From assembly GCA_045632345.1 (NCBI GenBank), contig JAZQWM010000082.1, positions 147,686-211,685 on the forward strand: 64,000 nucleotides of DNA, read 5' to 3'. The notes under the pieces are model-generated. The model was not told where the DNA came from. It saw only the letters and a list, made by a program, of their open reading frames with translations, and did no database searches. Positions 34,753 through 63,717 of this stretch are shown here, piece after piece; position 1 is the first letter of the stretch; each line of letters begins with the position of its first letter. This DNA is from Eubacteriales bacterium. Lineage in GTDB: Bacteria; Bacillota; Clostridia; Oscillospirales; CAG-272. Made by a program: the position numbers and the translations under genes.

Positions 34753-35142
34753 ATGAATATTAAAGAGATAAAAAAAGACCTAAGACAGTTAAAAAAGACT
34801 ATACATATTATTGAAGCATTAAAAAGAAGTCAAGCAAGATATACGGACAGGATTGACACCCTATCAAAATTCGTACAGACACCTAAAATAAAGGAGCAGA
34901 TTGAAACCACAAAAAAGGTAATGTCCTTACTTAAAATCGAGGAATACATAAAAGAAGCAAACGAAATTGAAAGCAAGTATATGGATGCAATAAACAGTCT
35001 TGACCCTATTGAAAGAACAATAATCATTGAAAGCTTTCTAAACGGCAATCCATATTGGAAAATCGGACTTGACCTTGGCTATGAGGAGGAGACAGTAAGA
35101 AAAAAAGTTTATAAGATTTTGAGAAAAATCGCAAATCGTTAA
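34753..35142 (+). CDS. RinA/ArpU-like phage transcriptional activator (sigma70 region-4-like HTH)
   Basis: AAAGGAG RBS; coiled-coil N-terminus; AINSLDPIERTII...YWKIGLDLGYEEETVRKK. Confidence 0.7.
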   Translation: MNIKEIKKDLRQLKKTIHIIEALKRSQARYTDRIDTLSKFVQTPKIKEQIETTKKVMSLLKIEEYIKEANEIESKYMDAINSLDPIERTIIIESFLNGNPYWKIGLDLGYEEETVRKKVYKILRKIANR

Positions 35143-46664: not shown

Positions 46665-46810
46665 CAGTTATGATTGCCTTCGGCAAGTTATGATGTGCCA
46701 AAGCACAGCTTAAGGTTACATAAAGGCAATCATATCATAACGTTTACGGAGTAAACTCATAACGCTTGCTTGCAAGCTCATAACATTTACGAAGTAAATT
46801 CATAACTTAC
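46665..46810. repeat. GTTATGA/TCATAAC inverted short-repeat array
   Basis: Two GTTATGA units then four TCATAAC units. Confidence 0.7.
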
Positions 46811-46887: not shown

Positions 46888-47799
46888 ATGAAAAAAACAA
46901 GATTTATTTACCCCTTCATCTGCCTTCTTGCCGCAATAATCTGGGGACTAAGCTTCCCTTTTCAAGATATGGCAGGAGAAAACGCCCACATATTTGACGG
47001 CTTTATGTTTAACGGTCTGCGCTTTTTAATAGGCGGCTTGGTTGTTATTCCTGTTTTCCTTCTTTTTGAAAAGGAAAAGGAGCTAAAAGCAGAGGAAAGA
47101 AAGGTCAAGCACAAAAACACTGTGCTTCTTGGCATAATTTCCGGTCTTATTCTCTCTTGCGCATCGGTTTTACAGCAATTCGGTATTCAAATGACGGGAG
47201 AAAGCGGAAAAGCAGGCTTTATTACAGGACTTTACCTAATTATCGTGCCTGTTGGAGCTTTCATTATGTTTAGACAAAAGGCTTCTCTTTTTGTTTGGAT
47301 TGCTATTCCTATTTCAGTTTTAGGCTTATATTTCCTATCAATTTCCGATGGCTTTACAATCAAAACAGGCGATATTTTAGTAATCTTATGTGCATTCGGC
47401 TACGCGGCGCAAATTATTTTTATTGACCGTGTTAGCACAAAAATCAGTGCAATCAGATTTTCCTGTACTCAATTCCTAACCACCGCCGTGGTTTGCATTA
47501 TACTCAGCCTACTTTTCGGTCATACCACCTGGGAGGGCGTTGTTTCAACAATCGTTCCTATTCTCTACTGTGGCGTATTCTCCGCAGGCGCGGCGTTTAC
47601 TCTCCAGGTTGTAGGTCAAAAGCATACTCCACCGGCAGTAGCCTCAATTCTCTTTGCAACTGAGGGACTTTTCGCCACAATCTTCGAGTGCCTAATTGAA
47701 TTAAAGCTACCAAGCCTAAAAATCACAATCGGCTGTGTCCTTATGCTTGTAGCCATTATGCTTTCACAGATAACTTTTTCTCCAAAGAAAAAGTTATAG
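46888..47799 (+). CDS. DMT/EamA family transporter
   Basis: About 10 TM helices; IWGLSF, KAGFITGLY, FTLQVVGQK. Confidence 0.9.
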   Translation: MKKTRFIYPFICLLAAIIWGLSFPFQDMAGENAHIFDGFMFNGLRFLIGGLVVIPVFLLFEKEKELKAEERKVKHKNTVLLGIISGLILSCASVLQQFGIQMTGESGKAGFITGLYLIIVPVGAFIMFRQKASLFVWIAIPISVLGLYFLSISDGFTIKTGDILVILCAFGYAAQIIFIDRVSTKISAIRFSCTQFLTTAVVCIILSLLFGHTTWEGVVSTIVPILYCGVFSAGAAFTLQVVGQKHTPPAVASILFATEGLFATIFECLIELKLPSLKITIGCVLMLVAIMLSQITFSPKKKL

Positions 47800-47874
47800 C
47801 CATTAGCGGTTAGCTGTTAGCGGTCAGCGAGATTAGTTGACAAATTTAATTGAATAATAAAAAATCGAGATTTA

Positions 47875-47919
47875 TCGGTAAAACTATACCGGTCAGTCCC
47901 GGTTTTTTTATTTTATAAT
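47875..47919 (+). promoter_or_regulatory. Conserved non-sigmaA promoter motif, copy 1
   Basis: TACCGGTCAGTCCCGG-T7-ATTT-TATAAT upstream of the initiator gene. Confidence 0.7.
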
Positions 47920-47959
47920 TGTATCAGAAGTAAATAAACAATTATAAAGGAGAAACAAA

Positions 47960-49120
47960 ATGGAACAACAAGGCTGGGTAAAATTTTATAGGGAATGGTT
48001 AGATAACCCAATAATAACAAAGGACAGTGAGCATTTGGCAGTATGGACTTATTTGAACTGTCAAGCAATACATACAGAAGTGGAATGTATTTTCAACAAT
48101 GAAAAAATCACTTTAAAAGCAGGACAAGCTATTTTTAAACAGTGCGATATGGCTGAATATTTGAAAATTGACAGATTTAAAGTGCTAAGAATATTAAAGT
48201 GCTTTGAAAATGCACGTCTGATTACACATCAAACAGATAAGCGAAAAACCCTGATAACGCTTGAACTTTGGGCGGTTTGTCAGGGATTAAATACACAACC
48301 AAATGCACTTCCATTGCACGTTCAATGCACATCTAACCAAGAAACAGAAAACGAAAAAGAGAAAAGAAGCAAAAGAGAAAAAGATAAAGAAAAAGAAATA
48401 AACAAGAATGAAAAGAATGAAAGAATATATATCCCCCCTTATATCCCCCCATTAGGGGAAATGAACGGAAACGCTCCTTTTTCCCTTTCGGAAAAACACG
48501 GACAGGGGACGGGGGCGTGTCCGCAGGACCTTGATAGGTGGCTTGAAGAGGATGACGGTATCGACGATTGGGACAAAGTTCAAATTTATTATAGAAATTT
48601 GAACAGCTGTCAGCAAGATAGCTTAACAGAGGATAACGAAACGAACGGTTTTGCACTTACCAATCCTATTCAGCAAGAAAAGGAAGAAAGAAGCAACCCT
48701 CAACCCCAACCCCCTTCTCCCTTTGCCACGGGCGAACATTTGCCGCAGGCAACTTCGTTTGAGGCAACGCCTCAACTTCATTGCGAAGTACTTCATTTGA
48801 ACAAGGTTCAACATCGTTCCGAAAAAGACCTTGAGGAGTTTTTCGGGCTTTTCTGGCAAGCATATCCTAAAAAGGTTGGCAAGGGATACGCTTTTGATTG
48901 CTTTAAAAAGATAAGAGTATCAAGAGCGTTACTTGATACCATGCTAGAAGCAATCGCCAAGCAAAAGAAAAGCGATATGTGGAAGCGAGATAAGGGTCAG
49001 TACATACCAAATCCGTCAACGTGGCTTAATCAAAAACGCTGGGAAGACGATTTAGGCGGCGAAGCTGACGACGACGGTCAAATTCCTTGGAGCAAATTTA
49101 ACCTTGGAATTGTTTTGTAA
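47960..49120 (+). CDS. Phage-type replication initiator / replisome organizer
   Basis: N-terminal GWVKFYR...ITLKAGQ; KE-rich linker; C-terminal FWQAYPKKVGK...IPNPSTWLNQKRWED. Confidence 0.8.
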   Translation: MEQQGWVKFYREWLDNPIITKDSEHLAVWTYLNCQAIHTEVECIFNNEKITLKAGQAIFKQCDMAEYLKIDRFKVLRILKCFENARLITHQTDKRKTLITLELWAVCQGLNTQPNALPLHVQCTSNQETENEKEKRSKREKDKEKEINKNEKNERIYIPPYIPPLGEMNGNAPFSLSEKHGQGTGACPQDLDRWLEEDDGIDDWDKVQIYYRNLNSCQQDSLTEDNETNGFALTNPIQQEKEERSNPQPQPPSPFATGEHLPQATSFEATPQLHCEVLHLNKVQHRSEKDLEEFFGLFWQAYPKKVGKGYAFDCFKKIRVSRALLDTMLEAIAKQKKSDMWKRDKGQYIPNPSTWLNQKRWEDDLGGEADDDGQIPWSKFNLGIVL

Positions 49121-49144
49121 TTTATTTGAAAAAAAGTTTGATTT

Positions 49145-49189
49145 TCGGTAAAAGTATACCGGTCAGTCCCGGTTTTTTTATGCAATAAT
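49145..49189 (+). promoter_or_regulatory. Conserved non-sigmaA promoter motif, copy 2
   Basis: 35 of 36 nt identical to copy 1, then TGC-AATAAT; upstream of the terminase. Confidence 0.7.
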
Positions 49190-49361
49190 AGAGTTGCAGG
49201 GGAAGAGAGAAACAAAACAAACGCTTAATGCAAGATTAAATCAATAATCAAATCTTGCTGACCGCTGACTCAGCCTTCCTTGTGTAAAGGAAGGGGGACC
49301 ACGAATGTGGTGGAAGGATTGTTCTTCCGCTGACAGCTTAAGCGACCGAAGGGGGCGAAAA

Positions 49362-51140
49362 ATGACCATTCATGACTTGATTAGTAAAAGAAAACAGCGG
49401 TGGCAAGAAATGCGCGATATTGAATACGACCGCATTTTAGTGGAAGCTATTGCCGATAAAATTCTGGAAAGCGAGGAGCTAAGAGGTCAAATTATTAAAA
49501 AGCCGTATTTGTTGATTGAATGCTGCTTCACTATCGTTGATAAGCAAAAAAGAACCGTTCCCTTCTTTTTGAATGACGTTCAACGTGATTTCATCAATAA
49601 AATTGAAGAATACGGCACGTCAAAGCCATTTTTCGTGCTAAAAGGCAGACAGCAAGGCTTTACAACTGTAATTACCGCCATTCAGCTATCCTATGCCATT
49701 GTGCGAAAAAACTTTTCCGGATTTACTCTTGCGGACAGAGATGACAACACCAAGGCAATTTTCATTGACAAGGCGAAAATGATTTACTCTAATCTGCCTG
49801 AAAGATTAAAGCCAACGGAAAAATTCAATTCAGTAAACGAATTGTTTTTTGACAAGCTGAACTCTTCATGGCGTATTGCCTCAGCCACCTCAAACGTAGG
49901 ACGAAGCAGAACATTATCCTTTATTCATTATTCAGAGGTAGCGTTTTTTAACTGTCCCTTGGCTGATTTACAAAAATCAATTCAAGAGGCGGCAATCAAG
50001 GATGCTCTTTGTATCTACGAGACCACCGCCAACGGCTTCAATGAGGCGAAATCTCTTTGGGACTTAAACTCCTGTCATAACCTTTTTTACGAATGGTGGA
50101 AAACTCCCGAATATGTGTCAGATGAATATGAATATCTTGAAAATACAGACACATGGTTAACAAATAGGCTTAAAAACCTTGAAAAAATCGGGCTTAGCCG
50201 TGAGCAGCGTACTTGGTATGCAAAAAAATATTCTTCCTATATAGACAAGTCGTCAATAAAGCAAGAATATCCCTGCTCACCTGAGGAAGCCTTCGTATCC
50301 AGCGGCAGCTGTGTCTTTAACAAGGACGAAATAAGCGAATATTTAAGCGTTTTTGACGTAAAATCAAGGATTGGCGTATTTGAATATGACAAAATAGCGC
50401 ACCCCGTAATCTCCCCTGACGGAAATCTGCTAGGCTGTACGTATTCCATTGAAAATATCCGTTTTATTGACACACCCTCGGGCTTTATATCAATAGTTGA
50501 CACGCCTTACTCTGAAAACAAAGGCACGCAAATATTAAAAAAGCCATACGTTATTGGCGCAGATACTGCGGGCACAGGCAAGGACTTCTTTACCGCCAAG
50601 GTTATTGACAACACAAACGCAAGATGTGTGGCAACGCTACGAAAGCAGTACATGGACGAGGATTTATTCGCCGAACAGCTTTACTGCCTTGGAAGGTTTT
50701 ATAATGACGCATTGATTGGCGTTGAAACAAACTATTCCACCCACCCTGTAAGGCATTTAAGGTCATTAGGCTATGAAAATCTTTACGTTTCAAAAACCAT
50801 GTCAACCTTCGGCGACGTAACGGACAAGCATTACGGCTTTATTACCACCTCAGTAAGCAGACCTATAATTATCTCTAACTTAGTGTCTGTAATGAGAGAA
50901 AACGTAAAGCTTGAAACCGACCGTCAAACGCTCATTGAAATGACAACCTTCATTAAGCGAAACGACGGTAAAAGCGGTGCATGTGATGGCGCTCATGACG
51001 ATTTGGTGTTAGCTGCAGCAATCGCGCGGTACATATCTATTGATTATGAGCATAATATGCAAATAATTGACACATCCCAGGACTTTCTTATTAAAAACTT
51101 CTCTTCTCCTTCCCCTGAAAATTCATTTATGGAGTGGTAA
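49362..51140 (+). CDS. terL: Phage terminase large subunit
   Basis: LKGRQQGFTT (Walker A), IHYSEVAF (Walker B), ETTANG, QEYP, IGADTAG, VETN, HDDLVLA. Confidence 0.9.
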   Translation: MTIHDLISKRKQRWQEMRDIEYDRILVEAIADKILESEELRGQIIKKPYLLIECCFTIVDKQKRTVPFFLNDVQRDFINKIEEYGTSKPFFVLKGRQQGFTTVITAIQLSYAIVRKNFSGFTLADRDDNTKAIFIDKAKMIYSNLPERLKPTEKFNSVNELFFDKLNSSWRIASATSNVGRSRTLSFIHYSEVAFFNCPLADLQKSIQEAAIKDALCIYETTANGFNEAKSLWDLNSCHNLFYEWWKTPEYVSDEYEYLENTDTWLTNRLKNLEKIGLSREQRTWYAKKYSSYIDKSSIKQEYPCSPEEAFVSSGSCVFNKDEISEYLSVFDVKSRIGVFEYDKIAHPVISPDGNLLGCTYSIENIRFIDTPSGFISIVDTPYSENKGTQILKKPYVIGADTAGTGKDFFTAKVIDNTNARCVATLRKQYMDEDLFAEQLYCLGRFYNDALIGVETNYSTHPVRHLRSLGYENLYVSKTMSTFGDVTDKHYGFITTSVSRPIIISNLVSVMRENVKLETDRQTLIEMTTFIKRNDGKSGACDGAHDDLVLAAAIARYISIDYEHNMQIIDTSQDFLIKNFSSPSPENSFMEW

Positions 51141-51141
51141 A

Positions 51142-51297
51142 ATGATAAAAATATTAAAAAGAATACGGGAGCTTGAAAAAAGAGTTTCCCATATTGAAAA
51201 AGCATTAGAAGGCGTAAATAACGTGCCTACCTCTGATGCTGACACGTCTGACTACAAGGAGGTGATTGACGAGTGGCTCAATGGCAAAAAGAGATAG
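51142..51297 (+). CDS. Small coiled-coil protein between terminase and portal
   Basis: GGAG RBS; ATG two bases after the terL stop; MIKILKRIRELEKRV...VIDEWLNG. Confidence 0.65.
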   Translation: MIKILKRIRELEKRVSHIEKALEGVNNVPTSDADTSDYKEVIDEWLNGKKR

Positions 51298-52899
51298 ATC
51301 GTGAAACGCATCTTTATAAAATGTATAAAAACGGTTTATCCTATCAAGCAAAAATCGGCATAAGCCAATCAATTCCGCAAGCCATTGATTTTTTTGAGGG
51401 TAGGCAATGGCCTGCTCCCACAGAAAGCACAAAGAATTTGCCAAGACCTGTTATTAACGTTGTTAAGCAAATTTGCCGCAGCAAGAAATCTGCAATTCTC
51501 TCAACTCCGGTTAAGCCTATTTTCAAAAGCTACACCCAATGCATTGACATATCAAAATTCAATTCCTTTGCAACGTCAATTTTCAAGGAGCTTGGGCAGG
51601 ACGCCCTTGACAAGCTTGCCATTGATGACGGCGTAAAGAAGGGCTCGTACTTCTACCATTACTATTGGGACAAAAACGCCATTGACTTAAACGGCATTAT
51701 GGACGGCGGCGTAAGATGTGAGCTAATTGACCCGCTTAACATTTTCTTTTCAAATCCGTCAATTTATGACGAGCAGAAGCAAAAGTGGATTTTGATTGCA
51801 TCACATCTTGATTTAAGTGAGGCATCTGCATTATGCGACGGAAATATAAGCATCGAAGCTCTTGAGACTGACAAAAACCAAGACGGCTCAATTACGGTGC
51901 TTACACGATATTTCAGAGTTGACGGCGAGGTTTACTTAGAGCGAGGAACGCGCTCACAAATGATTGCAGGTCCGTACCCCATCGCTCCTGCTGAGATAAA
52001 CCCCGTAAATGCTGGAAAGTTGGACGACTAAAAAACAGGCAGAGACAATAAAACGTGTGCGAGCAGGGCTATATCCTATCGTTTGCGGATTTTATGAAAA
52101 GCGCGACGGCTCAATTTTCGGCATTAGCGAAATTGACGGCATTATTCCAAATCAAAAGTCAATCAATTTCAACATTGCCATGAGCCTACTTAACGCTCAG
52201 GAATGTGCGTGGGGCAAATACGTTGCTCTACCAAACGCTTTAAAGGGTCAAAAGATTTCCAACGTGCCGGGACAGGTGCTTATCGACCATTCAGGCACAG
52301 GCAACGGCATTAAGCGTATGCAGGAGCAGCCATTAAGCTCCGTGCCTATGTCTATAACGGACAGCATTATTGAAATGACCAAGTCATCAAGCGGAGTTAA
52401 TGCCATTATGGGCGGCGACCTACAATGGTCCAACATGTCGGGAGTTGCGATAGCTCAGCTTCAAGCCCAAGCTCAGCTACCTATCGAGGAGCTTCGCTCT
52501 CAGTTTTGGGAGGTTAAGCGCAAGCAGGCTCTTGTTATAGCTCAGTTTATGAAGCTGTATTATTATAAGAAGCAATTTGTTACGGTAATTAACCAAGACG
52601 GCATGGATAAAGAAATTTTCGACTACTTTACGTCAAGGGACTACGAAAATTCAATTTTTGACGTATCGGTTGAGGTATGCGGTGGCTCTAATTATTCAAG
52701 CACGTCTGTAATTAGTATGCTTGATAGCTGCTTAAGTAGCGGAAAAATCTCTATTGAGACCTATATTAAAGCATATCCCGACTCTGCTCTTATCAATAAA
52801 ACTGAAATTTTAAAGCAAATCGAAGCTGAAAAATCATCAGAGCTTCAACGCTTAAGAAATGAGCTTAACGAGTTAAAATCATCAAAAATTAACGCTTAA
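51273..52899 (+). CDS. Phage portal protein (P22-like), split into two overlapping ORFs (51273..52031 and 52009..52899)
   Basis: DFFEGRQW, PRPVINVVK, ELIDPLNIF, YPIV, GISEIDGIIPNQKSIN, SGVAIAQLQ; position between terL and scaffold. Confidence 0.75.
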
Positions 52900-53015
52900 A
52901 TTTATCAAATTTGTTGACAAATCAACACATGATTTTGAATAAAATCCCAAACCGATTTTTTTACAAAACAGTTGACCCTGTGTCTGTAAATCAACATTTT
53001 TGAGAAAGGAAAATT

Positions 53016-53705
53016 ATGCAAAATAATAAGCAAAAATTTAAGGAGTTTTCCCCACTCTGTGTGGATAATTCCACAAAAAATCAAGAAAAATCAAATCAAA
53101 ATCAGTCTCTTTCAGGTGTTACTGATAAAAACGATGAAAAAACGCCTAATTTTCAAGAAAACAGCGACGTTTTGTCTGCAAGCGCGGTAGATTTACCCGT
53201 CGAGGGCGTTTCCGACATCAACAGTGCTTCAAATGCAAGTAAAACCGACGGTTTTGAGCAAAAAGCGGCTGAAAGCCAAGAGAACACAGGCGAAAGTCAA
53301 GAGAATGCAGGCGAAAGCCAAGAGAATACAGGCGAAAGCAAGGTTATTTTAACCTATGAAAGCCAAATCGAGCGTGATTTTAACGATTTTTCTATAATTT
53401 ATCCGCATATAAGTAAGGAGCATCTTCTTTCTAACGAAAGCTTAAGGCTTTTTGCTGAGGGCAAGGAAAGCAAGCAGCTTAGCGTTGTTTACGCTACCTA
53501 CTGCAAATTCGCTAATATTATTGCAAACGATGCAATTTTGCAGGAAAAATCACGAATTTCTAACGCCAGCAGCTCCTCAGGGTCATTATCTAGCTCACAA
53601 GGAGCAAACAAATCTTATTTTACCAAAGAGCAGGTAAAAGCCATGTCCGCCGAGGAAATTAAGCAAAATTACGATTTAATAAGACAAAGTCAAAGAAGCT
53701 GGTAG
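53016..53705 (+). CDS. Putative capsid scaffolding protein
   Basis: Acidic disordered N-terminus with ESQEN[T/A]G x3; C-terminal FTKEQVKAMSAEEI..NYDLIRQS; lies directly before the capsid gene. Confidence 0.65.
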   Translation: MQNNKQKFKEFSPLCVDNSTKNQEKSNQNQSLSGVTDKNDEKTPNFQENSDVLSASAVDLPVEGVSDINSASNASKTDGFEQKAAESQENTGESQENAGESQENTGESKVILTYESQIERDFNDFSIIYPHISKEHLLSNESLRLFAEGKESKQLSVVYATYCKFANIIANDAILQEKSRISNASSSSGSLSSSQGANKSYFTKEQVKAMSAEEIKQNYDLIRQSQRSW

Positions 53706-53777
53706 TACCTTTCTTGCTTGGCGCAAATATACGGTCATATCCCAAAGGGAATGAACCACAAGGAAAGGAAAAATATT

Positions 53778-54620
53778 ATGGCATATACTAACTTTATCCC
53801 ATCAGTATGGGCAGAAACAATCAACAGAGAATTAGAAAGAGCTTGCGTGTTCGTTGAGGACTGCAACAGACAATATGAGGGCTTAGTGTCCTCAAAAGGA
53901 GACAGCGTACATATTTTAGGCGTTGGCAAGCCTACAATCAAGACGTTGGACCGCGCAAACGCCTCAGGCGAGATCGACTCTGCCGAGGAAATCGAGGACA
54001 CGTCCGTTATCTTAGGCGTCAACCAAATCAGATATTTCAACTACATGGTTGGCGACATTGACAAGGCACAGGCAGTTGGCGGTCTTATGGATACGCTTTC
54101 AGCTGAAACCAGCGAGGGTCTTGCCCTTGAAATGGACAGATACATCTCATCAATGGCAACAAGCCAAGACGTTGAGAAGCTTACAGACACCGCTACCACG
54201 TTAACCAAGGACAACGTTCTTGACGTTCTTGATACAGCAATCATGAAGCTTCAAGAGAATGACGTTTCAATGGCGTCCGGCATTACAGTAACAGTATCCC
54301 CACGCTTCTACAAGCTCTTTAAGCAAGCGTACGTTGGCAAGGACACCGACAACAGCGATTTCCTTAAAAACGGCAAGGTCGCGATGTACGGCAACGTAAC
54401 GGTTAAGCTCTCAAACAACGTAGCAAGAACCGAGGACGGCGCAGTTGATAACATCATGATCCGTTCCAAGAGAGCTATCGCATTCGTTAACCCACTTACA
54501 CACACAGAAGCATACCGTCCTGAAAAGACATTTGCTGACGCTGTTAAGGGCTACGTTCTCTTTGACGGCAAGGTTGTAAGACCAAAGGAAATTATCAACA
54601 TCAACGTTAAGTACGCGTAA
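53778..54620 (+). CDS. Major capsid protein (P22 coat-like)
   Basis: NFIPSVWA, NRQYEG, GDSVHI, VGDIDKAQ, EAYRPEKTFADAVKG, GKVVRP; GAAAGGA RBS. Confidence 0.88.
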   Translation: MAYTNFIPSVWAETINRELERACVFVEDCNRQYEGLVSSKGDSVHILGVGKPTIKTLDRANASGEIDSAEEIEDTSVILGVNQIRYFNYMVGDIDKAQAVGGLMDTLSAETSEGLALEMDRYISSMATSQDVEKLTDTATTLTKDNVLDVLDTAIMKLQENDVSMASGITVTVSPRFYKLFKQAYVGKDTDNSDFLKNGKVAMYGNVTVKLSNNVARTEDGAVDNIMIRSKRAIAFVNPLTHTEAYRPEKTFADAVKGYVLFDGKVVRPKEIININVKYA

Positions 54621-54817
54621 GCGCATTACGCACAAGGCAAAATAAGGCGATTTAAGCGCATTATAACCTAAATTGGATAAATTACACTTAAAACTCAGAT
54701 AAGGGTCTTAAACGGTCTTATTTTCAGCCTAAACAGCATTTAAAATCAATTTGCAAGCGCCAAAGCAAGATAATTAACCAAATTTCATTGTTGACAGGAA
54801 ATTCAAAACGAAATAAA

Positions 54818-54853
54818 GGAAAGGGCAGCCCATACGGACTGCTCTTTCTTTTT
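54818..54853 (+). terminator. Terminator after the capsid gene
   Basis: GAAAGGGCAG...CTGCTCTTTC followed by a T run. Confidence 0.65.
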
Positions 54854-55512
54854 GGAATTTTATTCAGGATTTTCAGAGATTGAATTTCTTGCATTTTTTG
54901 AATTTCAGCTGACCCTGTGTCTGTAATTCAAATTTTTCTCAAAATTGTTATTTGCATAATTATACACACAAATCGCATAAATATACAAAAGCAATAATTT
55001 CGGGGTTTTGTTTGCCCTGTGTCTTTAAAATGGTATATTTTCCTTTCAAAACAACGCAAAGCCAAGGGTTTTTGGCGCTTTTTAATGAATTTTCTTTCAA
55101 TTTGCATGCATTTCTCTACTGAGGGGTTAAATTTAAGCTTAAAGCACGTAAAACAGCTGCAAAACAAGCTATTTTCGGGCAAAATTAAGGTATTTTAACC
55201 CACTTTAATCCATTCGGAGTCGGTTTAATCCATTTTAAGCATTTTAAGACATTTTAAAGCCACCCATAAGGCATTTTATAAGCCATTAAAGACGTTTCAA
55301 GGCGTTTTAAGCCACTTTAAGACGTTTCCAATACAAATTCTGTCTTTGTGGCGCATAAGCATGCAATGCGCGTCATGACAAGCCAAATAAGGCTGTTTTA
55401 AAGGAGATATAGCTCTATCAATGATTTATTGTCGTTATAAAGGAAAATTAAGCCAACGTCGTTATATCCGCTCTCAGACAAACAAAAGCCTTATATATGG
55501 CGTTATAGCATG

Positions 55513-55956
55513 CTATTTTTTCTCTATTTTCTTAATCAACCTAGAAGTTAAGCAAGCAACAGATAACACCACGAGCGCAGCAGCAACCAAATCGCAAAGC
55601 AATATACGGTAGGATTTCTCACAAACGAAAGCACCCTTACTTCTCTTTTCTTTAAGCTTTATTACTTTACGACAAGCATCCAAGCTACCGATATTTTCCT
55701 CTGCTTTAAAGGCAAAATGAGCTTCGTTTGTATCGGGTTTGTCATGCTCCAAGGCGTAGCTATCGCAGAAACAAGTGTCATTTTCCGGGCTTAAATCATG
55801 TTTATTTTCAACCTTATTTACCGCGCCTAAGGAAGCGTTTTCCAAAGCACAATTAACAATATCCTTACGTTTAAGAACATAAAAAGAGCGTTTAGTTTTA
55901 ACGGTTATGACAGTTCTTTTAGGGTCATTTCTGTATCTTTTAATAAAGCCAAGCAT
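55513..55956 (-). CDS. Hypothetical protein with C-terminal TM segment
   Basis: GAGG RBS; 147-aa ORF. Confidence 0.5.
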   Translation of the reverse strand: MLGFIKRYRNDPKRTVITVKTKRSFYVLKRKDIVNCALENASLGAVNKVENKHDLSPENDTCFCDSYALEHDKPDTNEAHFAFKAEENIGSLDACRKVIKLKEKRSKGAFVCEKSYRILLCDLVAAALVVLSVACLTSRLIKKIEKK

Positions 55957-56209
55957 ATAAAGGATTCCTCACGTTTTTATTTTTAGTATATGCATTTTCA
56001 CACGTAATATTTTTACATATTTTTCCATTTATTAGCATGTTTCAGCCGTTTTCGAAAGAAATATGCCTAATAATTTATATGATGACAACGCAATGCGACA
56101 CGTTGCGATAACGAAGGGTGCTAAAATAATCGTAAAAGATAAGGGAGTGATGGGAAATGTAAAATTTACATATTTTGGTAATATTTAAAGAAAACAAAGG
56201 AGAAAAAGG

Positions 56210-57022
56210 ATGTCAAATCAGCAAAACACAGTACAAAGCCAAGAAATTCAACAAATCGAAGTAACAAGGATATCGCCAAACCCCAACCAACCAAGAAAAA
56301 TATTTAATGAGGACAGCATAATCAAGCTAGCTGACAGTATCAACCAATACGGCATAATTCAGCCATTAACCGTAAGAAAAGTAGGCGAAAATTACGAATT
56401 AGTAGCAGGAGAAAGGCGTTTAAGAGCTGCTAAGGAGCTTGGGCTTAGCCACGTTCCCTGTGTAGTAATAGCCATAAACGAGGAAAAATCAGCAGAAATA
56501 TCTATAATAGAGAACCTTATAAGAGAGGATTTGAACGTTTTCGAGCAAGCAGAGGCAATAGAAGCTTTAATTGATACATACGGTCTTACCCAAGAGCAAA
56601 TCGCCGCCAAGCTATCAAACAGTCAATCTTTTGTGGCAAATAAGCTTAGATTATTAAGATATAACCCAAACGAAAGAGAGATAATCCTAAAAAACAACCT
56701 TACAGAACGTCATGCAAGGGCGTTATTACGAGTTTTAGACCCCGATTTAAGGGCGAAGCTACTTAACAGAATAGTTACAGAGCATTTGAACGTAAGCGCC
56801 TCAGAAGAGCTTATAGAAGCACATTTAAACCAAGAAGCCACAACGCAAAAGCAAGACAAACACACATATAAGTCAGTAAATTCGTTCTATTCCGCCATAA
56901 ATCGTGCCATTGATACAATAAAGAACAGCGGGATAGAAATCAAAAGCCGCAGGGTAGAAAGCGATAACTATACCGAATTAACAATTCTAGTACCCAAATT
57001 TAGCGAAATCACAGTAGAATAG
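56210..57022 (+). CDS. ParB-family protein, nucleoid occlusion (Noc)-like
   Basis: PNPNQPRK, AGERRLRA, ENLIREDL, VANKLRLL, LTERHARALL; upstream of parA-parB. Confidence 0.85.
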   Translation: MSNQQNTVQSQEIQQIEVTRISPNPNQPRKIFNEDSIIKLADSINQYGIIQPLTVRKVGENYELVAGERRLRAAKELGLSHVPCVVIAINEEKSAEISIIENLIREDLNVFEQAEAIEALIDTYGLTQEQIAAKLSNSQSFVANKLRLLRYNPNEREIILKNNLTERHARALLRVLDPDLRAKLLNRIVTEHLNVSASEELIEAHLNQEATTQKQDKHTYKSVNSFYSAINRAIDTIKNSGIEIKSRRVESDNYTELTILVPKFSEITVE

Positions 57023-57055
57023 CGATAAACCCACTAGCCAAGCTGGTGGGTTTTG

Positions 57056-57454
57056 TGTTTCACGTGAAACAAAGGTTCGCAGAGCGAACAGTGGTCAGTG
57101 GTCAGTGGTCAGTGGTCAGTGGTCAGTGGTCAGTGGTCAGTGGTCAGTGGTCAGTGAGGGGTGGATTGGTCAAGCGCAAGATTTCAAAACAAGTCAAACA
57201 GTATAAGAGTTGTTTCACGTGAAACGCTGAATTTTGTGTAAAATATAGCGATTTTTTCATTCTTAAAAACAAACAGCAAATAATACTCAACATTATTTTG
57301 ATAATTTATTTTAAGAACTGTTTTTGAAGTGTTTTTTGACGTTTCACGTGAAACATTTGAGTCGCCAGCCGTTAGCGGTCAGCGGTTAGCGAAATTAGCT
57401 ATATGCAAGTTTTAAAAATATAATCTAGCGTTAGCGTTTGTTTCACGTGAAACA
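57056..57454. promoter_or_regulatory. Four parS sites (57056-57071, 57211-57226, 57340-57355, 57439-57454)
   Basis: TGTTTCACGTGAAACA, two perfect and two with one terminal mismatch. Confidence 0.93.
57089..57156. repeat. (CAGTGGT)n heptamer microsatellite, about 9.5 units
   Basis: Perfect tandem array. Confidence 0.95.
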
Positions 57455-57637
57455 TGGGTGTTTTATTATTGAATTTTGTGTTTTGAATTTAATCATTTAT
57501 CTAACATCACTATCTGCTAACGGCTAACAACTAACAGCTAAAATTCACGGAATGTAAATTTTCATATTGATTTTACGATGTTTTCATGATATAATTTTAT
57601 CGTAAGGTTAGATATACATAAAAGAAAGGAAAACACC

Positions 57638-58411
57638 GTGCATATAATTTCATTTGCAAATCAAAAGGGCGGAGTAGGAAAAACAACGTCAGCGGTAAAC
57701 TGTGCCGCTTGCTTAGGTGGCTTAGGTAAGAAAACCCTTTTGATTGATTTAGACCCGCAGGGAAGCTCCACAAGTGGCGTCGGTGTTGCTAAAAACACAC
57801 TTAAATACTCATCATATGACGTATTAACCAAAAATTGTGCGCCAACCAAAGCAATCATTAAGACAGAGTTCGCAAATTTATCGGTTATGCCATCAAATAT
57901 GTCCTTAGCGGCAGCAGAATTAGAGCTTGCAACAGAGGAAAAGAGAGAGTATTTTTTAAAGGGAGCTTTAGAAGAGCTTGAAAAAACAAGCGATTTTGAT
58001 TACGTTATTATAGATTGCCCACCGTCATTAGGCATTATCACAATTAATGCGTTAGCTGCAAGCCAGGGCTTAGTTGTGCCAATTCAATGCGAATATTTCG
58101 CGCTTGAAGGACTTTCACAGCTTATGATGACGTTCAAATCAGTTAGACAACGCTATAATCCACGCTTAAATATTACAGGTATTTTAATTACAATGTTTAA
58201 TTCTAGATATAAATTATCATCTCAGGTATTAGAAGAATTAAATAAATATTACAGCTATCAGCTATTCGACACAAAAATTTCACGTTCAGTAACGTTATCT
58301 GAAGCTCCGAGCTTCGGCGAGCCTATTAAATATTACTCAAAATATTCAAAGGGTAGCTTAGAATACGAAAAGGTAGCTAAGGAAATTATTACAAGGACAG
58401 AAGGATATTAA
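57638..58411 (+). CDS. parA: ParA/Soj ATPase
   Basis: NQKGGVGKTT, DLDPQG, DCPPSLG, EYFALEG, EAPSFG. Confidence 0.95.
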   Translation: MHIISFANQKGGVGKTTSAVNCAACLGGLGKKTLLIDLDPQGSSTSGVGVAKNTLKYSSYDVLTKNCAPTKAIIKTEFANLSVMPSNMSLAAAELELATEEKREYFLKGALEELEKTSDFDYVIIDCPPSLGIITINALAASQGLVVPIQCEYFALEGLSQLMMTFKSVRQRYNPRLNITGILITMFNSRYKLSSQVLEELNKYYSYQLFDTKISRSVTLSEAPSFGEPIKYYSKYSKGSLEYEKVAKEIITRTEGY

Positions 58412-58508
58412 AAGAGAGGTCAGGGGATAGGAGACAGGGAATAGGGAAAAGTGCCTTATTTTATTGAATTTTAGAGAGACAAAAAACACGGAGAAAGGAA
58501 AATTAGTT

Positions 58509-59402
58509 ATGAAAAAAGGTTTAGGAAAAGGCTTAGATTCAATCTTTGCAGAGAATTATATTGAATCAACGGTTAAAAACGAAGGTGTACAAACGCTAAA
58601 TATTATTGATATAGAGCCAAAAAAGGATCAACCAAGAAAGTATTTTGACGAGGACGCTTTAAATCAACTTGCAGAATCTATCAAGCAACACGGTTTAATT
58701 CAACCTATTATTGTAAGAGAGGTTGGCGGCGGATTTTATCAAATTATCGCCGGAGAGCGTAGATGGAGAGCTTCAAAGCTTGCAGGACTCACAGAAATCC
58801 CTGCAATTATCATTGATGCAGACGCTTTAAAGGCTGCTGAGCTTGCAATTATTGAAAATATCCAAAGAGAGGACTTAAATCCATTTGAAGAAGCACAGGC
58901 TTACCGTTCACTTATGACACAGTACAGCTTAACCCAAGAAGAGGTTGCTTCAAAGGTAGGAAAGTCAAGAAGTGCTATTGCAAACACAATGCGCTTGCTT
59001 GATTTGCCTGAAGAAGTTCTTGAAATGCTACAAGCACAGGATATTTCAGCAGGCCATGCAAGAGCTTTACTTGGCTTAAAGGATAAGGACGTTATCGTAG
59101 ATACCGCCCATAAGATACTAATTCGTTCTCTTTCTGTAAGAGATACAGAGGATTTAGTAAAGAAAATGAACAAGCTTTATGACAAGGCTATAAATAATAA
59201 GGAAGAAGAAGACAGCACTGACGACCTAGTTGTTGACTACGCAAAGGACCTTGAAAGAAGAGCCATGTCTTTAACCGGTAAGATGATTAAGATTAAAAAC
59301 AAGGGCAAAATGAAGTCCATTGAGATTGAATACGTTGACAATGAGGACCTTGAGGAAATCCTAGTTAAGCTTTGCGGCAAGGCTATTACCGAGGAAAACT
59401 AA
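58509..59402 (+). CDS. parB: ParB/Spo0J
   Basis: KKGLGKGLD, AGERRWRA, ENIQREDL, GKSRSAIAN, SAGHARALL. Confidence 0.95.
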   Translation: MKKGLGKGLDSIFAENYIESTVKNEGVQTLNIIDIEPKKDQPRKYFDEDALNQLAESIKQHGLIQPIIVREVGGGFYQIIAGERRWRASKLAGLTEIPAIIIDADALKAAELAIIENIQREDLNPFEEAQAYRSLMTQYSLTQEEVASKVGKSRSAIANTMRLLDLPEEVLEMLQAQDISAGHARALLGLKDKDVIVDTAHKILIRSLSVRDTEDLVKKMNKLYDKAINNKEEEDSTDDLVVDYAKDLERRAMSLTGKMIKIKNKGKMKSIEIEYVDNEDLEEILVKLCGKAITEEN

Positions 59403-59403
59403 T

Positions 59404-59874
59404 ATGTATTTAACCGCACTTGAAAATAACTCAACTGAGTTAATTATATGGGGTATTTGCATTGGCGTTGTTTTGGGGTTTGTTGGTAACTTTATTTCAA
59501 AAGCCATTATGGGTCCATTCGTCAGAGCATTGCTTTCAAAGGGTGCTGTCGGAGAGGAAAATGCAATTTCCTTGCGCGACGCAGGCTTTCTTTACAGAAA
59601 GCTCCTTATGATAGCTATTCGCGATGGCTCAGCACTAAGAAACATCGTTTCCGTGGCGGGTGGCAAATTGCCAACCGTAACCGCAGGCGGCAAGACCGCT
59701 ATTGACTACGAAAAAGCGTTGTTTTATATCCCAGAGGACAAAAAGTCCAAAGCCGAAGCTACCTTTAATGAGGGAGAAAAGTGGTACGTTTTGCTTATAT
59801 TTATAGTTGTCGCAATCGCGTGCGCCTACGGAATGAGCAAGGTTATGCCCCTTCTTGTTGAAGCATTATTCTAA
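59404..59874 (+). CDS. Hypothetical membrane protein
   Basis: N- and C-terminal TM helices; starts right after parB. Confidence 0.7.
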   Translation: MYLTALENNSTELIIWGICIGVVLGFVGNFISKAIMGPFVRALLSKGAVGEENAISLRDAGFLYRKLLMIAIRDGSALRNIVSVAGGKLPTVTAGGKTAIDYEKALFYIPEDKKSKAEATFNEGEKWYVLLIFIVVAIACAYGMSKVMPLLVEALF

Positions 59875-59986
59875 TAGAAAACTGCCTTGCAGGTCGCAAG
59901 GCAGTTCTTTTCTTATATTATATATTATAGAAAAGCTGTTTTTCAGAAAAATTCAAAAAAAATTGAAAAAAATTTTAAAAAAGGTA

Positions 59987-60015
59987 TTGACAAATGACCC
60001 TGTTGTGTGTATAAT
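59987..60015 (+). promoter_or_regulatory. SigmaA promoter of the perR-rubrerythrin operon
   Basis: TTGACA-17-TATAAT, followed by the CAGTAATCATTACTG inverted repeat (candidate operator). Confidence 0.75.
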
Positions 60016-60073
60016 AATAACAGTAATCATTACTGATAAGGATTACTGAGTTACAGAAAGGATACAACAGTGT

Positions 60074-60442
60074 ATGAGAAACACAACACAAAGAACAGAA
60101 ATTCTTAAGTTTCTGCGTTCGAAAAGACATCATTGTAGTGCTGTGCAAATCTACGATGCTGTCCGTCAGGTAATTCCCAACATAAGTCTTGGCACTGTTT
60201 ACAGAAACCTTAATAATTTATTGGAGCAGGGAGAGATAATTTCCGTTGAGGCGGTTGATAAATGTATTTACTATGACGGCTTCATTCAAGACCATGCGCA
60301 TTTTGTGTGCGGTGTCTGCAAGGAAATTTACGATTTTCCTATTGAGGTTGAAAAAAGAACCTCGCTCGTTAATGCAGGCTTCTCGGTTGATAGCGAAAGA
60401 GTTATCTATTACGGCACTTGCGCTAAGTGCAAAATAAAATAG
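60074..60442 (+). CDS. perR: Fur-family regulator, PerR-like
   Basis: ISLGTVYRNL, HAHFVCGVC, GTCAKC; adjacent rubrerythrin. Confidence 0.8.
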   Translation: MRNTTQRTEILKFLRSKRHHCSAVQIYDAVRQVIPNISLGTVYRNLNNLLEQGEIISVEAVDKCIYYDGFIQDHAHFVCGVCKEIYDFPIEVEKRTSLVNAGFSVDSERVIYYGTCAKCKIK

Positions 60443-60489
60443 CGAAATTAAAAAAGTAAAAATTTATTTAACATAAGGAGTTAAAAGTT

Positions 60490-61140
60490 ATGAAAAAGTT
60501 TGTATGTAAGGTTTGCGGTTACGTTCATGAAGGAGATGCAGCACCAGAAAAGTGCCCAAAGTGCAAGGTTGGCGCTGATAAGTTTGAGGAAGTAGTTTCA
60601 AAGAAGTACGTTTGCTCTGTTTGCGGTTACGTTCACGAGGGCGATAGCGCTCCCGAAAAATGCCCACAATGCGGTGTTCCAGCAGATAAGTTTACCGAGC
60701 AAGGCGCTGAGCGTTATTGGGCTGCTGAGCATATTATAGGCGTTGCTAATGGCGCTCCAGAGGATATCATTATGGACCTTCGCGCTAACTTCATGGGTGA
60801 ATGCACAGAGGTTGGTATGTACCTTGCAATGGCAAGAGTAGCTCATAGAGAAGGCTACCCAGAAATCGGCTTATATTGGGAAAAGGCAGCTTACGAGGAA
60901 GCAGAGCATGCTGCTAAGTTTGCAGAGCTTCTTGGCGAGGTTGTAACAGACTCAACAAAGAAGAACCTTGAAATGAGAGTCGAAGCAGAAAACGGCGCTA
61001 CAATGGGCAAGTTTGACCTTGCTAAGAGAGCTAAGGAATTAAACCTTGACGCTATTCACGACACCGTTCATGAAATGGCTCGCGATGAGGCAAGACACGG
61101 CAAGGCGTTTGAAGGCTTGCTCAACAGATACTTCAAATAA
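60490..61140 (+). CDS. rbr: Reverse rubrerythrin / NADH peroxidase with two N-terminal rubredoxin domains
   Basis: Two CxxCGY...CPxC domains, then a ferritin-like domain (EEAEH, DEARH). Confidence 0.9.
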
Positions 61141-61332
61141 TCTTGTAAAGCCTTATACTACAAGGGTTTGTACAACTTAATACATCAAAGGGAATGAGTT
61201 ATGCTTGTTCCCTTTTTTGGCGCACTTTTCCACAAATTAGTGTAATTTTTATGGAATTTTGAGTTTGCTGATTTTCTAAAAAGCTCAAAATTCGGAAGCT
61301 CTAATTTTGGAAAGTTTTTATTTCAAAAAGTG

Positions 61333-61365
61333 TACCGGTCAGTACCGGTTTTTTTGTGTTATAAT
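61333..61365 (+). promoter_or_regulatory. Conserved non-sigmaA promoter motif, copy 3
   Basis: TACCGGTCAGTACCGG-T7-GTGT-TATAAT. Confidence 0.65.
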
Positions 61366-61549: not shown

Positions 61550-62518
61550 ATGAAGCCTAAAAGTATTAATTCATTAATGGCACATATGCGAGATGTAAAG
61601 CATATTCAAATAGAAGGAAGTATTCAAAAGAAAAAGCTAAGGCATATTGGATATTTCCACGGATACAAAGGATATCGTTATTGTAATTCTCCAAGTGTTC
61701 TTTTACCATATAATAATTTCAATGAGTTACAAGCAGTATACGATTTCGATATGAAAGTGAAATCTATACTTTATCCACAAATAATGTCGCTTGAAACAGC
61801 TTTAAAAAATTATGTACTTGAAGAAATTTTAACTGATGCGAACAGCAATAGATTTGCTGATGTTTACAGCAAATTAATGAAAGACTACAAAACTTATCCT
61901 ATCGGGAGCAAAGATTATAAAGATTCAATAACTAGACGAATGAATGTTCGCAACAAGATTTATAGCGTAATTTCTCGCGACTATGGCAAAAACAACATTA
62001 TCGCCCACTATTACGACAAAGATGAACCCGTGCCAATTTGGGCAATATTCGAACTAATAAGTTTAGGAGAGTTTGGAAATTTCATTTCGTGTTTAAATCT
62101 AAAAACAAGGTTAAATATTTCAAAATCTGTAGGAATTATTTCTAGTATAGACGGAGATGGAAAAATGCTTGAAACGATCGTTTATGCAATTAAAGATTTG
62201 AGAAATTCCATAGCACATAACAATATAATTTTTGACAACAGATTCAAGACTGGAAAGATTAACTCTCGCATTTCTAATTATATTTCTAAAGAAACGGGAA
62301 TTGCAAATATTACGTTTCAAACAATTGTTGACTACATAATTTTATTGTCTTTTTTGATGAAACTATTAAAATATAATAAATCAGATATACTTCCATTTAT
62401 TACACAATTTGAAGAAGCGTGTGAAGATTTGAGGGGAAAAATCCCAGTGAATATTTTTTCGAAAATTGTATATACTGATACTAGAGTAAAACTAAGTACA
62501 ATGAAAAAATACTTGTAA
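61550..62518 (+). CDS. Abi family (AbiD/AbiF-like, Abi_2) HEPN protein
   Basis: IGYF, YDFD..K, ETALK, PIWAIFELISLGEF, HEPN motif RNSIAH; own TTGAAA-17-TAGAAT promoter near 61490. Confidence 0.85.
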   Translation: MKPKSINSLMAHMRDVKHIQIEGSIQKKKLRHIGYFHGYKGYRYCNSPSVLLPYNNFNELQAVYDFDMKVKSILYPQIMSLETALKNYVLEEILTDANSNRFADVYSKLMKDYKTYPIGSKDYKDSITRRMNVRNKIYSVISRDYGKNNIIAHYYDKDEPVPIWAIFELISLGEFGNFISCLNLKTRLNISKSVGIISSIDGDGKMLETIVYAIKDLRNSIAHNNIIFDNRFKTGKINSRISNYISKETGIANITFQTIVDYIILLSFLMKLLKYNKSDILPFITQFEEACEDLRGKIPVNIFSKIVYTDTRVKLSTMKKYL

Positions 62519-62566
62519 TTTTTGCAAAGTACTTGATTTTATCTCCATATTGTGTTACAATATAAC

Positions 62567-62630
62567 ACAGAATAGCGGCGGACGTCTGCGGACTAAGCCT
62601 AAGAGAGTCGGATGCGTCCGGCTCTCTTTT
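62567..62630 (+). ncRNA. Candidate small RNA (putative AbiF antitoxin)
   Basis: TTGATT-17-TACAAT promoter (62533-62561); GC-rich ~63 nt ending in the AGAGAGTCGGA/TCCGGCTCTCT-TTT terminator; no ORF. Confidence 0.65.
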
Positions 62631-62808
62631 CATTGTCAAATCGCACTTGCTTTACTGAACACTATCTGCATGTGTGAGAAGTTATACGGCACTAATTTGA
62701 TAAATTATAATTAAACACTTGTATTTGATTTTAAAAAATGTTAAAATATGCTTATAGATAATGCCAGCAACTGAAAATGCATGATGCTACAACTTGAAGG
62801 AGTAAAAA

Positions 62809-63717
62809 AAGAGTGTTCCCGGTTATCAAGAATTTATGTTTCCTATATTAAAATTGTTATATGACGGAAAACTATATCGCAAAAAAGAGATTTTTGAACA
62901 AATGGCAGTTTCCTTTAACTTAACTATGGAGCAAATGGATGAAAGACTGCCATCACAATCAGAACCAACTTACATAAACAGAGTCGGTTGGGCGCTTACT
63001 TATATGAAGAAAGCAGGATTAGTGGAAAGTCCTGTTAGAGCTTGCTTTGCTATTACTGATGAAGGAAAGAAAATAGTAGATAATAACATTACAAATCTAA
63101 ACACAAAATATCTAAGAAAGTATCCGTCTTTTTTAGAATTTCAAAAAATATCTCACAACACAACAACTAAAAATGTAGATGTTGAAAAAGATAGCGAAAC
63201 CCCTTTTGAAAAAATAGTTTCATATAATGCGGTTATCAAAAAATCAATTTGTGATGACCTTTTAAATAAAATATTAGAGCAATCCCCTTACTTCTTCGAA
63301 CAATTGGTAGTAGATTTGCTTGTTTCTATGGGCTATGGAGGAAATATCGAAGATGCCGGAAAAGCTACTAAAAAGTCCGGAGATGAAGGGATTGATGGTT
63401 TAATAAAAGAAGACAAGCTTGGTCTCGACACAATATACATACAAGCAAAAAGATATAAAAAAGAAAACCTTGTTGGAAGACCGACTATACAACAATTTAT
63501 AGGTGCACTTCAATTAAAGGGGGCACGAAAAGGCATTTTGATAACAACATCAGACTTTACCAAAGAAGCGATTGAAGCGGTTTCATATAGTACAACAGTA
63601 TCTATTGTTTTAATAAACGGTACTAAACTTGTTGACTTGATGTACGAACACAACATCGGTGTAGGTTTGGAAAAAATAATCGAAATCAAAAAAATCGACA
63701 ACGATTATTTTGAATAA
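62809..63717 (+). CDS. mrr: Mrr-family type IV restriction endonuclease; expected start codon reads AAG
   Basis: SVPGYQEFMFPIL, NRVGWALTYM, FEQLVVDLL..MGYG, GDEGIDG, IQAKRY, ITTSDF. Confidence 0.88.
   Translation, partial: KSVPGYQEFMFPILKLLYDGKLYRKKEIFEQMAVSFNLTMEQMDERLPSQSEPTYINRVGWALTYMKKAGLVESPVRACFAITDEGKKIVDNNITNLNTKYLRKYPSFLEFQKISHNTTTKNVDVEKDSETPFEKIVSYNAVIKKSICDDLLNKILEQSPYFFEQLVVDLLVSMGYGGNIEDAGKATKKSGDEGIDGLIKEDKLGLDTIYIQAKRYKKENLVGRPTIQQFIGALQLKGARKGILITTSDFTKEAIEAVSYSTTVSIVLINGTKLVDLMYEHNIGVGLEKIIEIKKIDNDYFE

Follow-up and report, generated by a model that had tools for sequence, protein, structure and literature searches.

A 40-bp direct-repeat block as the probable common promoter of a dispersed, GTA-like element in a genus of gut Clostridia

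The DNA considered here (the window) is a stretch of 64,000 nucleotides from contig C82 (JAZQWM010000082.1, positions 147,686 to 211,685 of the forward strand) of a Eubacteriales bacterium of the CAG-272 lineage, the assembly of which (GCA_045632345.1) comprises 2.92 Mb in 83 contigs. The window contains three copies of a block of about 40 bp, termed the box, which lie ahead of a replication initiator gene, a phage-type head operon and a pair of defence genes. The box is probably a promoter in which two activator half-sites, both on the same face of the helix, stand in for the −35 element, and which is read together with a −10 element of the sigma-A type. As judged from sequence comparison, it defines a small regulon, with between 2 and 12 sites in a genome, within a single genus of uncultured gut Clostridia. 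According to the proposed mechanism, two tandem GTACCG half-sites placed 10 bp apart, at about −40 to −24 and preceded by AAAAGT, would take the place of the −35 in a composite promoter, and would be followed by a T-run spacer and a −10 that is read by the host RNA polymerase. A small activator, most likely a protein of 129 amino acids (aa) resembling sigma region 4, would bind to the direct repeats and recruit the polymerase in the manner of the late activators RinA, ArpU and Ltr. The regulon would consist of the head operon beside noc, an operon led by a small terminase gene (terS) elsewhere, initiator and loader cassettes, and a cargo slot after rubrerythrin. The case is built on sequence conservation, geometry, gene context, synteny and phyletic co-occurrence.

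A preliminary description of this DNA had reported three occurrences of TACCGGTCAGT[C/A]CCGG followed by T7, four nucleotides and a −10 hexamer, and these are present as described, with TATAAT, AATAAT and TATAAT ending at 47919, 49189 and 61365, respectively. Copies 1 and 2 are identical at 35 of 36 nt (47875–47910 against 49145–49180), the sole difference being C/G at 47884/49154, and the −35 position, at a spacer of 17 nt, is occupied by GGTCAG, which is not TTGACA-like, as had also been stated. A search of the window with up to three mismatches returned these three sites only, and none were returned from 100 dinucleotide-preserving shuffles. When examined as canonical sigma-A promoters, the sites possess a −10, with TGn at many of them, and lack a TTGACA-like −35 at 16–18 nt upstream. 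A promoter scan of the window did not include the three box sites among its listed promoters, and Rfam recognised two tRNAs only in the window, with no match at the box. Reads from four DNA runs yielded short, low-depth contigs of related strains only and provided no informative joints.

The general form of the box is seen in related genomes. Large terminase (terL) loci were located by protein homology, independently of the motif, and the 260 nt upstream of the gene were read in 30 of them. The box, a T-run and a ATGCAATAAT-like −10 lie directly upstream in 19 of these loci, all three are set ahead of a terS-like open reading frame (ORF) in two, and in the other nine, as in ordinary prophages, a coding sequence lies directly upstream. 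The box of most species reads GTACCGCTCCGTACCGC, GTACCGTTTGGTACCGG, GTACAGGTCAGTACAGG or similar, that is, a direct repeat of GTACCG with a period of 10 bp, of which the ACCGGT-N4-ACCGGT palindrome of the present genome is one variant. The CCGG-N6-CCGG box originally proposed is therefore retained as a box but not as a palindrome: the conserved element is the tandem direct repeat GTACCG-N4-GTMCCG, and the palindrome is an accident of the ACCGGT variant of this lineage.

All loci together provided 83 unique sites, of which ten were dropped by eye as doubtful and one for missing context, leaving a set of 72. These share a conserved block from −6 to +33 between unconserved flanks, in the order AAAA[G/C]T, GTACCG-N-T-Y-N, GTMCCG-S, T7, R-T-K-N-W and A-W-A-A-T. 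Positions that were left unconstrained by the search pattern are conserved too, with 1.3–1.8 bits for AAAA[G/C]T and about 1.5 bits for the A-W-A-A-T of the −10, and a purine is found 7 nt past the −10 in 70 of the 72 sites. Box-like sites are also seen as divergent pairs about 43 bp apart (G005:C6:78013-78077, G164:C2:20389-20453 and G166:C5:7505-7569), in which the partner site often has no −10 and overlaps an inverted repeat (TTGTCCCGC...GTGGGACAA).

The pattern GTACCG-N4-GTACCG-N-T5, with up to two mismatches allowed, had 102 hits spread over 31 of the 50 genus genomes, as compared to 17 hits for its reversed control. A relaxed pattern found copies in 4 of 24 other genus genomes and in none of 16 genomes that belong to other families of this order. 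As an exact match with its −10, the block is present as 19 stretches in only six records among 185,579 species genomes, and these records overlap the genus genomes already counted. It was not found among the 2.9 million viral contigs of IMG/VR, in which a looser repeat pattern retrieved one unrelated tandem repeat only. The rival that had been named at the outset, a simple duplication flanking the initiator gene, is excluded, since the same 40-bp block lies between unrelated flanks in other genomes of the genus.

Within the whole of the present genome the 21-nt core, with up to two mismatches, is found at seven sites, as compared to none for the reversed control, and the relaxed pattern TACCGGT-N4-MCCGS-T7 is found at nine. 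Eight of the nine copies precede phage-type or defence genes, and the earlier prediction that orphan phage genes would lie behind copies elsewhere in the genome was borne out: the genes concerned are four initiator paralogs, a DnaC-like loader, the head operon, the terS-led operon and the Abi/Mrr pair, with one copy left as an orphan. The box was also considered as one more mosaic intergenic repeat of this genome, an idea that was rejected, since the mosaic repeats are found at many host sites whereas the box has nine copies only.

A total of 73 sites were classed by their first downstream gene or genes. The head operon follows 16 of them and the terS-led operon 14, with initiators of the DnaD-like (nine sites), DUF1376-like (four) and winged-helix (two) families, loaders (two), Abi/Mrr (one) and other genes (15, at least two of these sites lying ahead of barnase/barstar according to Pfam) behind most of the others; ten are followed by no ORF or by the end of a contig. 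A TGn extended −10 (TGn-AATAAT) stands ahead of the structural operons, at 14 of 16 head and 12 of 14 terS-led sites, as well as at both loader sites. The initiators are preceded by TTTTAyAAT (TTTTATAAT) without TG at 14 of 15 sites, across three unrelated families. The existence of two −10 classes suggests different strength or timing of expression. Since initiators with unrelated DNA-binding domains have the box in common, the initiator itself is unlikely to be the protein that reads it.

The four initiator paralogs of this genome (on C82, C35, C40 and C60) are 52–69% identical to one another and each lies behind a copy of the box; in phage collections only domain-level relatives of the initiator were found. 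No integrase or repressor was seen beside the initiator copies in the annotated flanks, where the upstream neighbours are ordinary host genes. The DnaC-like loader and its box are located on a contig of 1.1 kb, a collapsed repeat by which C40 and C60, at their ends, are joined to C50 and C82, at their starts. Box 2 and the final 350 bp of the window's initiator gene (48851–49203) are about 90% identical to C35:18366-18014 and C49:1046-695, compared to only 70–80% for the 5′ parts of the paralogs, a difference that points to gene conversion or recombination at the junction of the initiator 3′ end and box 2. The orphan copy, on C39 (G000:C39; L005 6760-7300), follows a purine-rich repetitive stretch and is itself followed by about 300 nt without an ORF and then by a convergent gene; it could represent a decayed cassette or serve a small transcript. 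A position of the orphan copy ahead of an rRNA operon was considered and rejected, as Rfam gave no match in the C39 or L099 loci.

The junction of fur, rubrerythrin, box and cargo to which copy 3 belongs is common to three genomes, with Abi_2 and Mrr as the cargo here and barnase and barstar in G010 (L096/L112) and G020 (L176). The presence of different cargo behind the same fur-rubrerythrin box suggests that the slot is a swappable position for defence or toxin genes. The eamA-box-initiator junction is likewise common to several genomes.

The best candidate for the protein that binds to the box is the one put forward in the preliminary description, encoded at 34753–35142, and the chances that it is the right one appear to be about even. 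The AlphaFold (AF2) model of this protein has six helices, with a predicted local distance difference test (pLDDT) score of 94, and is matched best by Foldseek to ECF sigma factors and to isolated sigma-4 domains, at 1.4–2.3 Å over the C-terminal 55–60 residues. Its PHROG matches are transcriptional regulators and activators, and Sigma70_r4 is matched by 22 of 30 orthologs at E ≤ 0.01. The predicted last helix contains a near-invariant R116 and K117, which would fit a conserved DNA target. Of the 49 other genus genomes, 36 have an ortholog, in each case a single one. When these 49 are scored for both genes, the regulator and terL occur together in 35 and are both absent from ten, with terL alone in three and the regulator alone in one; of the three genomes with terL only, two are 53% and 75% complete and one has a prophage-type terL. 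Outside the genus, a profile built from 30 orthologs detected the regulator in one of 120 genomes of the family (G056), where its gene is directly upstream of terL-portal-scaffold-capsid, and weak paralogs of the regulator are encoded just upstream of terL in prophages of the genus. The profile gave a chance-level match only against PDB sequences, and a comparison by eye of the recognition helix with box variants revealed no clear pattern of covariation, both being largely conserved. A Cys-rich ORF upstream of the regulator gene may encode a partner or antagonist of the regulator.

The head operon (terL-portal-scaffold-capsid) lies directly upstream of noc-soj-spo0J in 15 genomes of the genus, namely G000 (the present genome), G173, G004, G010 and 11 of 18 further regions. 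The other seven regions comprise two genomes with head and second-operon genes contiguous behind one box, two with no noc in the stretch and three that are cut by contig ends. Across the regions compared the capsid is 77–90% identical to that of the window, the adjacent Noc 58–70% and Soj about 58–71%. Since the head operon holds one chromosomal place across the genus and evolves no faster than its host neighbours, it is best described, from these comparisons, as domesticated and vertically inherited at a fixed position, apparently under purifying selection. A terL homolog was found in 38 of the 49 other genus genomes, and capsid homologs of 27–69% identity in 42 of 120 other genomes of the family. 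The portal gene is divided into two ORFs in the window, a split that could reflect an assembly error, decay or slippage; the orthologs are intact, as single ORFs of 542–562 aa.

The second operon, on C35, contains eight genes that encode proteins of 82, 212, 914, 379, 598, 201, 126 and 275 aa. Neither Pfam nor NCBIfam had a match to any of them, and such PHROG matches as there were are weak and of unknown function; no sequence relatives in the PDB were found for the 914-, 598- and 379-aa proteins, and the nearest entries to the 379-aa protein are unnamed viral clusters in Atlas, with a top score of 0.92. With no family matches, the operon may be called ‘tail-side’ only by synteny and size. Its first gene encodes 82–136 aa and has homologs ahead of terL in G019 and G183, on account of which we take it to be terS, an assumption based on position and a sequence pattern rather than on a family match. 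In G000, G004, G010 and others the head and terS-led operons are found on different contigs or loci, but in G019 and G183 they adjoin each other. The annotated flanks of the modules showed no integrase, no whole-genome search for one having been made. The preliminary description had remarked that replication and packaging genes under one motif are not typical of a temperate phage. Such genes do lie behind one motif, and the modules would belong not to a temperate phage but to a domesticated, split element at a fixed position that resembles a gene transfer agent (GTA).

The reading of the box that was first offered, as an activator-dependent promoter without a −35 and part of a regulon of the RinA/ArpU kind, has held under every computational test that was run, all of them comparative. 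Promoter activity, activation rather than repression and the identity of the binding protein are what we infer from them, and several observations weigh on the other side. Part of the conservation in the sequence logo was imposed by the search pattern, and doubtful sites were dropped by eye. The candidate regulator scores below the curated cut-offs of its families (Sigma70_r4, 23.3 against 24.1 bits; ECF sigma, 32 against 42.9; ArpU TIGR01637, 22.1 against 43.1) and the Foldseek E-values of its model are weak, at 0.03–0.4; its sigma region-4-like domain holds at the level of the predicted fold only. The co-occurrence of regulator and terL is suggestive and no more, as related genomes are not independent. 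Moreover, the regulator gene is located 13 kb from the nearest box, among the host genes for Fic, IF-2 and NusA, and no box was found within 900 nt upstream of it in 30 loci at up to three mismatches, bar two poor matches.

A TGn extended −10, or a perfect TATAAT, can work without a −35, and the box could therefore equally be a repressor operator. On this account the sites would be sigma-A promoters with an extended −10, and the direct repeats would be bound by the sigma-4-like or KorA-like protein, or by another, such that the modules are kept silent until induction. This is considered unlikely, given that the candidate has its sequence affinities with sigma region 4 and ArpU-type activators, even though KorA, the global repressor of a mobile element, is among its fold matches. 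The box does overlap the region from −35 to −24, where a bound protein would block the polymerase, but a −35-like hexamer is absent. The co-occurrence data fit a repressor as well as an activator; the homologs of the regulator, however, are found in the classical late-activator position upstream of terL, and no CI/Xre-type repressor was seen beside any module in the annotated flanks.

It is improbable that the hairpin and T7 are simply the intrinsic terminator of the upstream gene and that an ordinary promoter happens to follow. The three window copies have terminator-like scores and fold as weak hairpins with stems of 5–6 bp ahead of T7 (−7.8 to −10.5 kcal/mol, z −2.2 to −3.3), a feature on which the preliminary description is silent, and each is 3′ of a co-directional gene, at 86 nt past EamA, 35 nt past the initiator and 191 nt past rubrerythrin; these are further points that count against the box as a promoter. 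When a terminator-like stem is defined as at least 5 bp with at least three GC pairs next to the T-run, one is possible in 27 of the 72 sites but impossible in 45, and non-folding variants such as GTACCGCTCCGTACCGC retain the repeats, the T-run and the spacing, including the distance to the −10. No compensatory changes in the stem were seen among related sites. The loss of the stem in most sites, with the rest of the block retained, argues that termination is not the conserved function, which is instead the block at its fixed geometry to the −10. Furthermore, at 17 sites the closest ORF on the upstream side is oriented divergently (with lengths of 671, 547, 840 and 537 aa among them), and three loci (L069, L081 and L082) have their own separate strong terminator ahead of the box, so that no terminator would be needed in such places. 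In this lineage the block may act, secondarily, as a weak terminator as well.

It is very improbable that the repeats act as iterons or as an origin to which the flanked initiator binds, or as an att or recombination site by which cassettes move: the initiator gene does lie between two copies, the 10-bp direct repeats are iteron-like and the cargo after rubrerythrin varies, but the box stands ahead of three unrelated initiator families and of operons without a nearby initiator, the block always points at the downstream gene with the −10 at a fixed distance, no recombinase was seen beside the modules examined, and the cargo has no second flanking copy.

The activator-dependent promoter can be extended to a wider and rather doubtful scheme, in which a whole domesticated podovirus-like GTA, with its initiator cassettes and a swappable toxin/defence slot, would be wired to one sigma-4-like master activator through the 40-bp promoter, and in which induction would lead to amplification of the loci in place. 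In the lineage to which this genome belongs, a separate initiator gene has been gained just upstream of each structural operon, an arrangement that suggests such in-place amplification, comparable to the run-off replication by which the GTA of Bartonella is fed.

Table 1. Features of the window discussed in the text, in positions of the 64,000-nucleotide stretch
Feature	Coordinates	Strand	Description
Cys-rich ORF, 70 aa	34253..34465	+	290–500 nt upstream of the regulator gene; tblastn match at this position in 10 of the 30 orthologous loci
Candidate regulator, 129 aa	34753..35142	+	predicted all-helical, with a C-terminal sigma-70 region-4 fold of the Ltr/ArpU type
Promoter block copy 1 (predicted)	47880..47919	+	AAAACT, ATACCGGTCA-GTCCCGG, T7, ATTT, TATAAT; initiator-type −10 class, without TG before the −10; predicted start about 47926; 52 nt (from the match end) ahead of the initiator ORF
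Replication initiator, 386 aa	47960..49120	+	DnaD-like N-terminal part, phage Rep C-terminal domain; phrog_270 5.9e-25, phrog_2514 1.3e-22
Promoter block copy 2 (predicted)	49150..49189	+	AAAAGT, ATACCGGTCA-GTCCCGG, T7, ATGC, AATAAT; structural-operon −10 class, TGn extended −10; predicted start about 49196; orthologous block ahead of terL in 16 genomes of the genus
Repeated element in terL leader	49257..49340	+	heptad tract, CCTTCC...GGAAGG hairpin, then GGGGACCAC; dispersed repeat family, not part of the box
Large terminase (terL), 611 aa	49305..51140	+	first gene of the head operon; phrog_2 3.7e-19
Portal, two ORFs (51273-52031, 52009-52899)	51273..52899	+	split at the A6 run 52030-52035; P22_portal Pfam hit
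Putative scaffold protein, 229 aa	53016..53705	+	role by position only; no family hit; syntenic orthologs 27–71% identical
Major capsid protein, 300 aa	53718..54620	+	phrog_267 2.8e-34
Promoter block copy 3 (predicted)	61326..61365	+	AAAAGT, GTACCGGTCA-GTACCGG, T7, GTGT, TATAAT; TGn extended −10; predicted start about 61372
Cargo behind copy 3	61550..63717	+	Abi_2 61550-62518 (Pfam 5.4e-29), Mrr 62836-63717 (Mrr_cat 7.1e-34)

A number of further features are found around the boxes and the head operon. Between the capsid gene and noc, at 55513–55956 on the reverse strand, there is an ORF of 147 aa without a family match, of which a homolog with 45% identity is located in the same place in L095. 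Stretches similar to the repeated element of the terL leader (Table 1) are found on C27 (three), C4, C40, C50 (two), C60 and C8 and at C82:32501. In L163, L165 and L167 an element of this kind lies between two GTACCG box copies upstream of terL, as if it had been inserted and had duplicated the box. Heptad tracts (of the GCGGTTAGC or GCTGACC type) adjoin boxes 1 and 2, at 47799–47830 and 49257–49274, and are also present downstream of initiator-type boxes on C35 and C60. Between dus and eamA, at 46665–46810, there is an array of small variable hairpins with a constant TCATAAC linker; such arrays are found in more than 30 places of the genome, among them the regions ahead of the initiator copies on C35 and C40.

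According to work reported in 2026, DNA packaging of the GTA kind is common in gut Oscillospiraceae and Ruminococcaceae. For this newly recognised class of gut elements, the box would provide a first concrete regulatory hypothesis. It takes the form of a testable circuit, made up of a 40-bp cis-element, a named candidate regulator and target operons conserved across at least 16 genomes. The presence of toxin-immunity or defence genes and of replication cassettes from three families behind the same box would tie defence, and possibly selfish elements, to the induction of a GTA. The box may also be useful in annotation, as an inexpensive marker by which the dispersed components of these elements could be recognised in metagenome-assembled genomes, in which the majority of the structural proteins have no family match.

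Promoters with an activator box in place of the −35 are well known, and include those with the pho boxes bound by PhoB and the middle promoters of phage T4, where a MotA box at −30 is combined with an extended −10. They share with the present block direct repeats of about 10-bp period, or a box at −30, together with a good −10 of the sigma-70 type, but the regulators differ, and the likeness is one of working rather than of membership. A dedicated sigma-like or activator protein also switches on the dispersed genes of the Rhodobacter capsulatus GTA, through GafA-dependent promoters, and the late genes of PBSX in Bacillus subtilis, where the protein is Xpf. In these cases the proteins and DNA motifs are unrelated to those described here, and the phylum or the architecture is different.

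In terms of gene content and layout, on which the comparison is based, the closest parallel is with FpGTA of Faecalibacterium prausnitzii, in which two operons are separated by about 125 kb, TerS is short, and about 9 kb of host DNA is packaged into podovirus-like particles (PMC12946183). Both are phage-derived systems of gut Clostridia of the Oscillospirales type, both have separate, distant operons with genes for a short TerS, TerL, portal, scaffold and capsid, and both have podovirus-type affinities, represented here by the P22_portal hit. Unlike FpGTA, the present element has terS travelling with the second operon in most genomes, and it is known from its genes alone. The available text of PMC12946183 contains no passage on the regulation of FpGTA and no instance of the word ‘promoter’, and no other publication that names FpGTA was found.

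The closest regulatory relatives are the late promoters of the Ltr superfamily, found in phages of Gram-positive bacteria (PMC3753634; PMC3152322). In PMC3753634, RinA, ArpU, LtrA (which is Sigma70_r4-like), LtrB and LtrC are each described as requiring direct repeats of 7 nt, in two to four copies, upstream of the terS promoter, and ArpU and LtrC as shifting the direct-repeat DNA. The present system resembles these in its putative regulator, a small phage-type protein whose C-terminal domain is like sigma region 4, in the packaging and morphogenesis genes that would be controlled, and in the short direct repeats upstream of packaging genes, which here take the form GTACCG-N4-GTMCCG before terL (16 genomes) and the terS-led operon (14). 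It differs in that the known activator genes lie just upstream of terS, with the repeats immediately distal, whereas here the regulator gene is unlinked to the boxes. Furthermore, the box replaces the −35 and abuts the −10 at a fixed distance, its nine dispersed sites include replication and toxin/defence genes, and the element is chromosomally fixed rather than a temperate phage, with binding and activation as predictions only. The box may thus be viewed not as a new principle but as a promoter of the Ltr late type that now appears to serve as a shared switch for a dispersed, domesticated, GTA-like element and for the genes that accompany it.

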